DNA from: Candidatus Cloacimonadota bacterium
GTDB taxonomy: Bacteria > Cloacimonadota > Cloacimonadia > JGIOTU-2
Reading direction: 5' to 3'
Assembly: GCA_049903315.1 (NCBI GenBank)
Contig: JBNGBT010000012.1
Coordinates: forward strand, 26,556-90,555
Length of the DNA stretch: 64,000 nucleotides
In this document: positions 42,796-64,000 of the stretch, one piece after another
How the letters are laid out: the number at the start of each line of letters is the position of its first letter
Position numbering within the stretch: position 1 is the first letter of the stretch
The notes under the pieces: generated by a model
Seen by the model: only the letters and a program-made list of their open reading frames with translations
Told to the model about the DNA's origin: nothing
Database searches by the model: none
Made by a program: the position numbers and the translations under genes

Positions 42796-43071
42796 TCATA
42801 TTCCTTGCACCCCACTATTCCCGGGAAACGGAATAGTAAGGTAGGAATTAAGGAATTTATTTTTCCCGAGAATTGATAATGTTGTATTTGTGTTGTATTT
42901 TTCATTGTTAAAATATATTTTGTTATAGTAACTTGCATAATATACGTCAGTTACCAAATTCAAATGGGGGGGGGGGGGTAAGTCCTCCCAAAATATTTTT
43001 CCAATTATCTTTTGTTGCCATCATATTTTTTCCTTTGAATAGATTGGTGAGAATTGCAATTTGCTTGTCAA
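42796..43071 (-). promoter_or_regulatory. Leader with TTGACA box, poly-C13 leader ORF and hairpin (copy 1)
   Basis: TTGACA at 43071-43066; RBS AAAGG; ORF MMATKDNWKNILGGLTPPPPFEFGN* at 43024-42947; G13 at 42966-42978; hairpin 42810-42841. Confidence 0.7.
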
Positions 43072-44556: not shown

Positions 44557-44859
44557 ATGAAAAATAAAAGCAATTTAAGCACAGAAATTGAAAAGCAACT
44601 CATAACTTACCTTGTGAATGCCGGAGCACGAAAGATCGGAGTTTTTGGATCCTATGCTCAAGGTTGTGCTGGTACGTCGAGCGACATTGATCTTCTTGTG
44701 AAATTTGCAGACATTAAAAGCCTGCTTGAACTTGTGAAAATTGAAAGAGAATTAACAGAATTGCTACATATAAAAATAGACCTTCTGACCGAAAATTCTA
44801 TAAGCCCCTTTTTAATTGACAGAATAAAGTCGGAAGAGCAGGTAATTTATGAAAACTAA
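44557..44859 (+). CDS. Minimal nucleotidyltransferase (MNT) antitoxin
   Basis: VFGSYAQG...SDIDLLV (GSx10DxD). Confidence 0.9.
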   Translation: MKNKSNLSTEIEKQLITYLVNAGARKIGVFGSYAQGCAGTSSDIDLLVKFADIKSLLELVKIERELTELLHIKIDLLTENSISPFLIDRIKSEEQVIYEN

Positions 44860-45190
44860 GGATGATTTAGTTTATTTGCAGCACATTTTGGATTCGATCA
44901 AATGGATTGAAAACTATATCTCAGATTTATCTCACGAGCAATTTCTCAATAATCATCTCGTGCAAGACGCAGTAATTAGACAGATTGAAATAATCGGTGA
45001 ATCATCTAAGAAAATACCAGATTCACTTAAACAAAAGTATTTATCAATTCCATGGAAAGACATAGCAGGGCTGAGAGACAAGCTCATACATGGATATTTC
45101 GGAGTAGATATAGAAGCAGTGTGGAAAACAGTGAGTACTGACATCCCATTATTAAAAACACAAATTGATATTATAATTAAAAACCTATGA
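44849..45190 (+). CDS. HEPN/DUF86 RNase toxin (HepT-like)
   Basis: DAVIRQIEIIGE, IPWKDIAGLRDKLIHGYFGVD (Rx4HxY). Confidence 0.92.
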   Translation: MKTKDDLVYLQHILDSIKWIENYISDLSHEQFLNNHLVQDAVIRQIEIIGESSKKIPDSLKQKYLSIPWKDIAGLRDKLIHGYFGVDIEAVWKTVSTDIPLLKTQIDIIIKNL

Positions 45191-60205: not shown

Positions 60206-60236
60206 AAAAGGGCAATGAGTTGTTTCATTGTCCTTT
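60206..60236 (+). terminator. Putative terminator hairpin
   Basis: AAAGGGCAATGA-loop-TCATTGTCCTTT. Confidence 0.55.
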
Positions 60237-60255: not shown

Positions 60256-60512
60256 TTGACATAAATTATTTTATTTATTGCTTTCTACAAAAGGTTTATT
60301 ATGGAAAAGAAAAATAAATTCGGGTTTTTTATACATTACACTATTCTCTTACCCCCCCCCCTATGCCATAAGGTACATATTTGGCGTAAGTTATGAAAAT
60401 TCTAATAGGAATTATAGACCTGAATACAAAGAACATTTTACAACAAATATCGTTTGCAAAAATAAGTTTACATAACCATTCCCTGTCTGTGAAGTTCCCG
60501 AAGCAGGCAGGG
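60256..60512 (+). promoter_or_regulatory. Leader with TTGACA box, poly-C10 leader ORF and hairpin (copy 2)
   Basis: TTGACA 60256-60261; RBS AAAGG; ORF from 60301 MEKKNKFGFFIHYTILLPPPLCHKVHIWRKL*; C10 at 60352-60361; hairpin 60481-60512. Confidence 0.7.
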
Positions 60513-60657
60513 TATTCGTGAGGTTTTTCCTTCTATGATTAAAGCTGTGGGTAGAAAATGAGACGGGGGAACTAACTTCTTATATTGTAGTTTAAAAGAC
60601 TCTAGGATATAAGAAGGACATTCTCACTGGGGTAAATTAAAAGAATTAGGAGATAAA

Positions 60658-60990
60658 ATGATAAAAAAAATTGCAATAATCGCAATATTAGCGACAATTC
60701 TCATTGGTGGAAATTTATTTGCTGGTGATAAAGATCCGCTTATTATACATGTAGTTGCACAACAAGAAGTTGACTGGGAACTTAGGATATGGGATGGAGT
60801 ACAGTTTCCATGGAAAATACCAGGTTATGGAACGATGGATAAAAATGCAGATGGTTGTCAGGGTGATTATTATCAAATGTGGGCTTTAGATGAAACGGTC
60901 TTAGTTGAATCTGGATATCTACCTAATTCAGACTGGTTTGAAATTGTTATACCATTGACTGTACCGGGCGAAGAAGATCCGGAACAATAA
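60658..60990 (+). CDS. Small secreted hypothetical protein
   Basis: RBS AGGAG; signal peptide; followed by hairpin ATGGGTGGAG/CTCCACCCAT. Confidence 0.65.
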   Translation: MIKKIAIIAILATILIGGNLFAGDKDPLIIHVVAQQEVDWELRIWDGVQFPWKIPGYGTMDKNADGCQGDYYQMWALDETVLVESGYLPNSDWFEIVIPLTVPGEEDPEQ

Positions 60991-61051
60991 AAATAAAAAC
61001 ATAATGGGTGGAGGGGATACTCTCCACCCATAAATAATAAAGGAAGATAAA

Positions 61052-63108
61052 ATGAAATATAAATTAACATTAATTTGCATTATAATGCTATTATTTCAAA
61101 TAAGATGTTTTGCACAGAACCCGACACTCGAAAAAATTGTTGAATACCCAACAGGCGGCGTTTATTTGGAAAAGGACAATCTATGTGTACAAGATAACTA
61201 TCTCTTTGCAGCTTCGAGTTATGGACTTGAAATTTACGAGGTTGAAGAGGATGAGCAGGCACAGCTTATAAGCAGATTACCTCTCCGTGATGACGCGAGA
61301 ACGATAGCAATAAAGGATCAGTACGCCTATGTTCAAGCAGTATCTTATTATGAGAATCACACAAATCTATATCAAATCGATATTTCAGATATTAACAATC
61401 CATATATTGCGGATAGTGTCTTTACAAACGATGAAAACGGTTTTGGGCAGGGAGATATTTATAATGATTTTATAATGTTTAGAAATTATGACATAGACTA
61501 TAATTTCTATTACAGTATTTACAGAATACCCGAATTTGAATTTGTTCAAAATTACTATTGTAGTAATCATTTCATACAACTTAATGATAGTCTTGCATTG
61601 TATAGATACAATGGGAACATATTCACTCTTTATGATTTCAGCGACCTGGAAAACATTACTGAAATAGGACAAGTTGACTTAACAGCCGGAGGTATCCCTA
61701 TAGATGAAATTCAAGCTGTTAATGATTCAATAATTGCATGTATTGATTTTGAAGGAATTGCTTTCTGGAATTATTCAGACAATAGAAGCTGGCAATATCT
61801 TTCAACAATTTATTCACCTTCAAATGAAAATTGGTCAGGTAAGATCTATGCAGTAGATGACTTTATATTTGTAAGTTATTCATCTAACAACCCAGGGATG
61901 AAGTGTATAAATATTACAGATATCTACAATCCTTATATAGTAGATTCAATACTTCTAAATCCATATTGGTATTATATGACAGGATCTCCAATTGTTGGAG
62001 CATCAAACTCAGCATTTATAGGAACCTATCAAAAGATACATCAGTTTAATTTTGATAATGGTTATTTTGAAGAACAGTATGATATCTATTCAAACTATCT
62101 TCAAAGAGGAGGGGTAATTTATGAGAATTATTTATTTGTCTCTTATGTATATGGCTTGAAAATATATGATATTTCGACACTCCCTGATATTATCTTCATT
62201 GATTCAATGTATGATGAGGTTGAAACTACTACTCTTTTTTTAAGAGATAATTTATTATTCTTTGTTGATTTTACTAACTATAAAATTATCGTATTAGATA
62301 TATCAACACCAGAAACACCTTTGTTAAGAAATGAAATACCGATACCAATGTCAAATGGTGACTTGTTGATTGATGAAGAATATGAGTCGATATATTATAA
62401 AGAACATTATCCTGGTAACACATTAATAAAATACAGTATACCTGAACCAAACGATTATACAGTAGATTTTCAATATAATTTAGGTTGTACGGGCAATGGT
62501 TTTATTTATAATGATCATTTTTATTATTTAGCAGGGAATAATACAAATGGACCTGACCTACAAATATATGGAGAACTTGAAGAAAATAATCCTGAATTGA
62601 TATATACTATAACAGATTTTGCAGAAGGATATATGGATTATCCAAATGCTTACATAATATCGAAAATGCATCGGGAATGATAGAACCAATCGCTGATTAC
62701 AGTGACTATGGGTTTTCACAATATTGTATAATCAATGAAAGTAACGAGAATAAATATCTCTATCATTTTCAAGGCCCGGGATTTTCTATTTATGAAATAG
62801 AGGGATATGGCACTGATCCCGAACCGGAATTTCCCGAGCAATATTTTACCATCTACCCCAATCCATTTTCTAATACGATAACATTCTCATTTAAAAACAA
62901 AAATTTTTGTGAATTTTCAAAAATAAGAATTTATAATGTAAAAGGACAATTAGTCCGTGCATTGCGCTTTGACGCTTCTTCGCCACTTCACTCTATCAAA
63001 GTAAGTTGGGATGGAAAGGATGAGTATGGCAATGATGTAAAAAGCGGAGTATATTTTTATAAAATTGATAATGATGATGACCATATTGGGAAGGTAGTGA
63101 AGTTATAG
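61052..63108 (+). pseudogene. LVIVD-repeat secreted protein with CTD, split into two frames (61052-62680 and 62677-63108)
   Basis: Signal peptide and (L/I)xIxDIS repeats in ORF1; CTD only in ORF2, which has no signal peptide; frame change near 62655. Confidence 0.65.
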
Positions 63109-63189: not shown

Positions 63190-63309
63190 TGATTGGCTGC
63201 GACCTACTCTTCCACACAGTTTCCCATGCAGTACCATCAGCGCACGTGTGCTTAACTTCTGTGTTCGGGATGGGAACAGGTGTGACCACACTGCTATAAC
63301 AACCAATCA
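63190..63309 (-). rRNA. rrf: 5S rRNA
   Basis: CACCTGTTCCCATCCCGAACACAGAAGTTAAG...GATGGTACTG...GAGTAGGTCG; terminal helix TGATTGG/CCAATCA. Confidence 0.96.
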
Positions 63310-63364
63310 TTTCACTGCCCATATAAAAATAGGTAGTGATTAAAGTAAGAGATAAAAAGAGAAA

Positions 63365-64000
<636 letters not shown>

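Follow-up and report, generated by a model that had tools for sequence, protein, structure and literature searches.

A candidate phase-variable leader attenuator ahead of secreted-protein genes in Candidatus Cloacimonadota

Phase variation through a dedicated leader peptide is known from two pilus loci of a single streptococcus, pil1 and pil3 of S. gallolyticus. There a repeat shifts the frame of a leader open reading frame (ORF), which then ends inside a terminator or 4 bp ahead of it, and this terminator depends on a tail of six U (available text of PMC3894217). Here we describe an element at positions 60256-60660 of a 64,000-nucleotide window from a Candidatus Cloacimonadota genome (assembly GCA_049903315.1, contig JBNGBT010000012.1, positions 26,556 to 90,555), in which a run of ten C (C10) within a tiny upstream gene probably flips ribosome access to a short peptide motif (KNKF) and a hairpin (P2) at random. 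The module seems to switch secreted-protein genes on and off, and comparison of its copies indicates that it is a real, selected and repeated regulatory cassette. We put the probability that it is a phase-variable, cis-acting leader attenuator with a Rho-type output at roughly 55%.

As far as the available text of PMC3894217 goes, the element resembles pil1 and pil3 in that a simple repeat (a C tract, not GCAGA) is contained in an upstream ORF dedicated to the leader, the reading frame determines whether the ribosome meets an early stop or one just before or within a hairpin, and surface-protein genes lie downstream. Its on-phase stop is next to, within or past the hairpin and its off-phase stops are far upstream. 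It differs in having a C mononucleotide tract where pil1 has a GCAGA repeat and one on phase of three where pil1 has two, in lacking the 6-U tail, in its conserved KNKF motif and predicted pseudoknots, and in occurring as many dispersed copies before unrelated genes, with a core that is also found repeat-free. We did not file it as a pil1 member because P2 lacks the U run that, with a hairpin, makes an intrinsic terminator. The available part of PMC12360218 describes Rho attenuators controlled by upstream ORFs (TnaC, SpeFL and CruR), which resemble our element in a leader ribosome that here would shield a candidate Rho utilization (Rut) site, a conserved C-terminal peptide motif by the stop codon and a long spacer to the first gene; a conserved cis-acting peptide motif likewise lies near the end of the leader here. 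In our element, however, DNA slippage would set access, about half of the copies read past the motif, and the leader ORF itself contains the candidate Rut site. The same source describes stochastic, Rho-linked on/off switching of surface structures by leader-encoded premature termination in E. coli fim and C. difficile flgB, but by recombinase inversion rather than tract slippage and leader translation. In M. tuberculosis espR expression changes with a simple repeat that precedes the gene under control (PMC11898584), and the available text of that paper contains no upstream ORF term, whereas the tract here would act through the leader reading frame. A literature search that left out most subscription papers and supplements returned no description of the element and no paper joining 'Cloacimonadota' and 'leader peptide'; 'KNKF' occurred in none among the matches listed, and outside most subscription papers no other case of phase variation through a dedicated leader peptide was found. 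Homopolymer phase variation in 5' untranslated regions has reportedly been seen for H. pylori tlpB/RepG and in H. influenzae. The accessible part of PMC8542988 holds nothing on phase variation.

The layout of the element is given in Table 1. An earlier note on this DNA had called it a second, diverged copy of a poly-C leader found elsewhere in the window (copy 1), and the coordinates and spacings it gave were exact, with 45 against 47 nucleotides (nt) from the -35-like box to ATG, 157 against 160 from ATG to KNKF and 180 against 183 from ATG to the hairpin. The relatedness holds through a shared core, but the element belongs to a subfamily of its own (B), and the wider module often has no poly-C tract. 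Frame 0 of the C10 leader stops 10 codons after the tract-ending codon, and the +1 frame stays open for 37 codons to the TAA at 60473-75, 5 nt before the P2 stem. The CKNKFT codons are reached in the on phase only, and C9 or C12 would give a 57-residue peptide. In copy 1 the long frame reads through the hairpin, with no stop before it. Nine C8 matches were observed in the window against 0.29 expected, which argues against the chance co-occurrence that the note had raised as a danger to its reading. Genome-wide, four of the seven runs of at least 10 C lie upstream of a KNKF motif; two other long C/G runs, outside the leader family, are apparently intergenic and may be separate contingency loci (G000:C44:11005, minus strand, C12; C71:40330, plus strand, C11). 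The TTGACA read earlier as a -35 box is present, but the promoter amounts to this match: the consensus scan called none at this site, and 398 intergenic TTGACA sites yielded no clear -10 consensus. The start of subfamily-B leaders (window 60301-60324) also encodes a K-N-(K/E)-F-like stretch reminiscent of the terminal motif.

Table 1. Features of the leader element, its downstream genes and copy 1 (window coordinates)
Feature	Position	Strand	Remark
Terminator-like hairpin of the upstream operon	60207..60236	+	Insulates the leader element
-35-like TTGACA, A-tract 5' of it	60256..60261	+	Promoter inferred; -10 not identified
Shine-Dalgarno-like AAAGG of leader ORF	60290..60294	+	
Leader ORF as assembled, 31 aa	60301..60396	+	C10, off phase; ATG 60301, stop TGA 60394-96
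Poly-C tract, C10	60352..60361	+	Sets reading phase; pure C3-C12 runs among subfamily-B copies
Spacer, 96 nt	60362..60457	+	Open in KNKF frame only; neutral at the amino-acid level, richer in C than in G, unstructured; candidate site for Rho loading
Early stop TAA of the other off (-1) frame	60369..60371	+	Kept in subfamily B
C-K-N-K-F-T codons and stop TAA 60473-75	60455..60475	+	Conserved as amino acids
Hairpin P2, 10 bp	60481..60512	+	Stem covaries; loop 60493-99 able to base-pair with the box at 60567..60573; lacks a canonical U tail
GGGAA box	60567..60573	+	Complementary to P2 loop (predicted pseudoknot 1)
Hairpin P3 (subfamily B)	60576..60616	+	All cells paired; changes one-sided only
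Predicted pseudoknot 2	60599..60633	+	P3 loop 60599-605 with 60627-633
Shine-Dalgarno of first downstream gene	60647..60652	+	
110-aa protein	60658..60990	+	Signal-peptide-like N-terminus; no Pfam hit
Large secreted-protein gene, split	61052..63108	+	Two ORFs, 542 and 143 aa; Por_Secre_tail/FlgD_ig in second
Copy 1, subfamily A	42796..43071	-	C13 at 42966-78, off phase; before beta-helix/Por_Secre_tail gene

Five tract-bearing leader copies were found in this genome, four of subfamily A and one (60256) of subfamily B. Subfamily A carries GGAGG just 5' of the tract and a long frame that runs through the hairpin; subfamily B has no GGAGG upstream. A total of 48 distinct tract copies (19 A, 29 B) was assembled from related genomes, metagenome contigs and genome contigs (50 rows minus L084 and L121, which were chance pattern hits), and the records with copies that carry a title belong to Candidatus Cloacimonadota, Ca. 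Celaenobacter antarcticus among them. The 60256 copy was found weakly (E 0.68) by a profile built from 14 copies of subfamily A, a subfamily-B model matched an A copy (C69) with an E of 0.004, and a single core model takes in both subfamilies; A and B are taken as homologous because of this shared core. Truncated subfamily-A leaders, with promoter and leader start kept and tract or core lost, were seen at G000:C33:29752-29894, L005, L007, L013 and L016, and the stop of the L005 leader overlaps the start codon of the next gene. No downstream gene was found at L006, L044 and L057, where the tracts are interrupted or short, yet the open frame and motif are kept.

Translation of the leader is supported by its evolution. 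The KNKF frame was open over the 31 codons before the motif in 27 of 29 B copies and 18 of 19 A copies, compared to zero or one copy in the other frames and 8-10% of shuffles. In a neutral simulation along the tree, 4.4 open frames were expected in B and 2.7 in A against 20/21 and 15/15 observed, and none of 1000 simulations reached the observed values. The stop depletion that the earlier note had proposed to look for in this frame is thus present by both frame counts and simulation, and frames and stops are non-random across the 48 copies, contrary to the random pattern that would have spoken against it. The spacer showed a ratio of nonsynonymous to synonymous polymorphism (pN/pS) of 1.0 in B and 1.3 in A, compared to 0.01-0.13 for the motif (L018, L085 and L019, which carry spacer indels, were removed from the A set for the simulation and pN/pS), and changes in the motif were almost only synonymous, also in BLAST-derived sets not chosen by motif. 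Early stops closed both off frames sooner than expected from codon shuffling in 13/14 copies of A and 11/12 of B; the conserved off-frame stop codons explain the apparent signal of a small hairpin after the tract better than such a hairpin does. Translation appears to act in cis because the long frame is kept open while the spacer residues are neutral, and this pattern indicates that the residues are free to vary and that the passage of the ribosome is what matters.

Tract lengths place the copies in all three phases (0/+1/+2), with 8/8/8 in the 24 B copies where the leader has a start codon and 4/11/4 in 19 copies of A. Among seven pairs of near-identical loci (at most one mismatch over 1.38-1.6 kb), five pairs, at four loci, differed by a single tract C and no other indel, as would be expected if the C tract slips in vivo. 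Together with the open frame, this makes it very probable that the phase of the tract gates ribosome access in cis.

By the same kind of comparison, the core of the module lies outside the poly-C tract: it consists of a translated (G/C)KNKF(I/T) motif with a covarying hairpin 21-24 nt further on. A model of the region downstream in subfamily B found leaders without poly-C, some of 10 codons only, with the same motif followed by the same hairpin. In a core model made from 25 copies, 94.8% of the stem was paired and seven of the 10 pairs had changed on both sides, the stem covariation that the earlier note had proposed to look for; with the stop depletion in the long frame, it supports the claim of selection on architecture. 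The core model matched nine places in this genome, 17/21 genomes of the family and 27/150 genomes of the phylum in five families, with up to 21 hits per genome and no match in the 68 genomes of family f6. Four tract-free KNKF-type cores lie in this genome (G000:C11:347695-347762, C4:35782-35849, C55:50289-50356, C33:266907-266974).

Cores were fetched from part of the listed hits, and 110 non-redundant ones were retained from 137 after removal of hits with E >1e-3 and copies >90% alike. A tract of at least 7 C lay 69-118 nt upstream of the motif in 46 of them, and the motif frame was open from the tract in 45 of these 46, compared to three and one for the other frames. Among the 63 tract-free cores with enough upstream DNA, an in-frame ATG was present in 48 (other frames 10 and 12) and an in-frame ATG with a Shine-Dalgarno (SD) sequence in 24 (other frames 0 and 2). 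An in-frame ATG was also favoured in tract-free copies that read past the motif (11/17, other frames 3 and 2), so the frame of tract-free cores is not set by the stop alone. The hairpin started 21-24 nt after the first lysine codon in 102/109 cores, and a stop stood right after the fifth motif residue in 56/110; among non-redundant copies, the stop stands directly ahead of P2 in all 19 of subfamily B and within or after it in all 15 of subfamily A. With the codon of the fifth residue in the P site, the hairpin would presumably sit near the mRNA entry of the ribosome. The core itself may be a ribosome-operated switch, because it would also function in leaders that have no tract and as few as 10 codons. 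A wider proposal, which we regard as tentative, is that (G/C)KNKF(I/T) is an undescribed arrest or sensing motif that acts with the hairpin and pseudoknot at the mRNA entry as a portable switch, imposing one translational signal on dozens of secreted proteins and on clusters resembling those for ribosomally synthesized and post-translationally modified peptides (RiPPs), with poly-C tracts added upstream in several families as a stochastic AND gate, by which phase variation would govern access to a conditional attenuator of the nascent-peptide type.

The loop of P2 is complementary to a GGGA box 55-70 nt downstream. When cognate loop-box duplexes were compared to permuted ones, permutations did as well in 11/5000 for B and 2347/5000 for A, the latter giving no signal. 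Loop TCC and GGGA box co-occurred in 70/78 versus 13/32 copies (Fisher p 2e-7, with copies not independent by kinship). A second predicted pseudoknot, present in subfamily B only, gave 1/5000 and ends 14 nt before the SD sequence. The two pseudoknot helices were 91% and 90% paired with some two-sided changes, and four helices placed on 13 B copies were 95.7% paired compared to 37-56% in slid controls. The earlier note had offered protein binding for the conserved P2 loop; in these models base pairing with the downstream box would be a better explanation. Searches at the Rfam gathering score found no family for the window stretch, eight A/B loci or 12 further loci. Two candidates were rejected in this region, a structure in the P2-to-box stretch, which folds no better than shuffles in most copies, and a second upstream ORF starting before the GGGA box, whose frame is not conserved in the alignment.

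In the mechanism that we favour, the C tract would gain or lose single bases, with one phase in three 'on'. In that phase a ribosome would translate the spacer of about 96 nt and reach the motif codons before P2, while in both off phases it would stop within about 45 nt of the tract, in keeping with the evolutionary signature. The bare, C-rich and unstructured spacer of the off phases would then load Rho, with termination around P2 as a pause site and the secreted-protein genes silent, and in the on phase a coupled ribosome would shield the spacer. The KNKF-hairpin core would finally act as a ribosome-operated switch, the tract deciding in which cells this switch is available. As the output we favour, with modest confidence, early termination of transcription, chiefly by Rho, because P2 lacks a canonical U tail, Rho is near-universal (encoded in this genome and in 148/150 genomes of the phylum), and the spacer is unstructured and richer in C than in G in tract copies. 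The C/G ratio of the spacer was 1.8-2.1 compared to 0.89 in ORFs; across cores it was 1.52 in tract copies and 0.86 in tract-free ones, or 1.3 and 0.75 with A and B left out. Few terminators close to stop codons are a mark of coupled transcription and translation, and 6% of the 165 U-tract terminators of this genome lie within 12 nt of a stop codon. Rut sites are described as 60-90 nt, weakly structured and with C>G (available part of PMC12360218).

The same slippage gate could instead have a pil1-type output, with P2 a weak intrinsic terminator, perhaps assisted by NusA or NusG, that the on-phase ribosome prevents from folding. The geometry is that of pil1, where the on-phase peptide ends 4 bp before or within the hairpin (available text of PMC3894217), and the stop positions of the B and A copies given above agree with it, as do the B tails, which average 4.8 U in the 9 nt after P2, with at least five U in 53%; such an output would also cover the short tract-free leaders. 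A tails average only 2.5-2.9 U (other copies 4.1), the absence of a canonical U-tract reported earlier was confirmed, and the consensus terminator scan does not call P2 although canonical terminators are used in this genome. It would also leave unexplained why the peptide is conserved, why the loop can pair with a box 55-70 nt further on and why the C>G skew is specific to tract copies, and we consider this output unlikely.

A post-transcriptional switch, in which arrival of the ribosome remodels P2 and the pseudoknots and so alters access to the downstream ribosome binding site or to RNase E/G or Y, draws on the support for both predicted pseudoknots, the co-occurrence of loop and box, the position of pseudoknot 2 before the SD sequence and the presence of RNase E/G and Y. 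Masking the bases covered by the ribosome, however, had a small effect of either sign on predicted SD accessibility (mean +0.03 to +0.07 over 93 copies, in a model without pseudoknots), so that a switch in SD accessibility was rejected for want of a consistent change. Pseudoknot 2 is specific to B, the A loop-box pairs show no covariation, and no match to RNase J was found in this 96%-complete genome, which also makes an exonuclease-blocking role unlikely. We judge a post-transcriptional switch improbable.

Ribosomes can slip by +1 at CCC-C, and a fixed tract could serve programmed or conditional +1 frameshifting, or a polyproline/EF-P sensor, with no DNA phase variation. Four of the five copies in this genome and 11 of 19 A copies need +1, GGAGG stands just upstream of the tract in A, EF-P is present, and C10 was constant in the contigs of four runs. 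The even B phases, in-frame copies included, the lack of an upstream GGAGG in B and the near-identical loci that differ in tract length speak against it, and this reading is highly improbable, although +1 frameshifting may add leakiness to the +1 phase. A trans-acting small protein, such as a toxin or regulator, would account for a motif conserved as amino acids but not for a neutral spacer, leaders of 10 to >70 codons with unrelated N-termini and a motif held at a fixed distance from the hairpin, which points to cis action, and we give it very little weight. The absence of any regulation, with hitch-hiking leaders of duplicated surface-protein genes and tract differences that are sequencing errors, would suit data that are all metagenomic assemblies with error-prone homopolymers and downstream paralog groups, but it is barely credible since stop depletion, synonymous-only motif changes, stem covariation and occurrence in five families before unrelated genes require selection.

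Several observations weigh against the phase-variable attenuator with a Rho-type output. Contigs of four DNA sequencing runs showed no indel at the C10 tract or at the copy-1 tract, where the contig of one run starts 2 nt beyond the tract (such contigs drop rare alleles, and the four runs may be the source of the assembly). Many duplicate records share tract length, and homopolymer errors may account for the differences of one C from assembly to assembly. In some copies the tract is short or interrupted (C3-C6) and would be expected to slip rarely, the phases of subfamily A are skewed to +1, and each of the five tract copies in this genome is in an off phase. The operon behind the 60256 copy may be damaged, as its large gene is split. 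The early off-frame stop signal is absent outside A and B (11/20 other tract copies). The Rut-like spacer is absent from short tract-free leaders, and Rho loading on a spacer cannot explain the core in those of 10 codons. The copies are also related, so that counts overstate independence, and both the pN/pS and simulation set and the set of 110 cores are partly circular, having been selected by motif patterns.

The genes behind the leaders begin with signal-peptide-like stretches (judged by eye), and Por_Secre_tail and/or FlgD_ig domains were present in 20 of the 31 scanned, which include some paralog groups. Small ORFs like the 110-aa one in the window follow most B copies. At the break in the large gene, about 67 residues of an intact 747-aa relative (L103) are missing and the sorting domain is in a separate ORF. 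Between the small and the large gene lies a strong hairpin (61004-61031), terminator-like on the minus strand only, which may set the ratio of the two gene products. Some cores precede small, acidic, Cys-containing peptides that resemble RiPP precursors by eye; at L139, L141, L151, L193, L210, L223, L243 and L244 these are acidic, mostly Cys-containing ORFs of 46-56 aa, followed in some cases by radical-SAM-like genes (by eye). A diversity-generating retroelement was rejected, differences between copies being not adenine-specific in alignments read by eye. Elsewhere in the window, 5S and 23S rRNA-like genes (by eye; 63190-64000, minus strand) face the operon, an ORF at 63494-63853 is probably spurious, and a nucleotidyltransferase and HepT-like pair at 44557-45190 (plus strand) is toxin-antitoxin-like.

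The element also resembles the RfaH ops and Bacteroides UpxY opsX elements, as given in the available text of PMC11213015, in having a conserved leader and hairpin before surface-related operons and in the presence of a second NusG-family gene in this genome. It differs in that its motif is conserved as in-frame codons and that the second NusG gene (L128, G000:C9:1183-1728, minus strand) precedes a polysaccharide-type gene, a sugar-aminotransferase-like protein. UpxY/LoaP-like NusG paralogs are common in the phylum, and a link between the element and such a paralog is unsupported, since families that lack the core, f6 among them (core in 0/68 genomes), commonly have a second NusG-family gene.

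The logic known from pil1 would thus recur here in an uncultivated phylum of the environment, in the form of a cassette that can be reused, possibly with a new peptide-RNA core. The short motif, selected at the amino-acid level and held at a set spacing from a structured RNA, is a compact candidate for a new arrest peptide. Gene callers miss the KNKF leaders, the length of the tract in metagenomes tells whether they are on or off, and single cells of these bacteria could display different combinations of secreted proteins.
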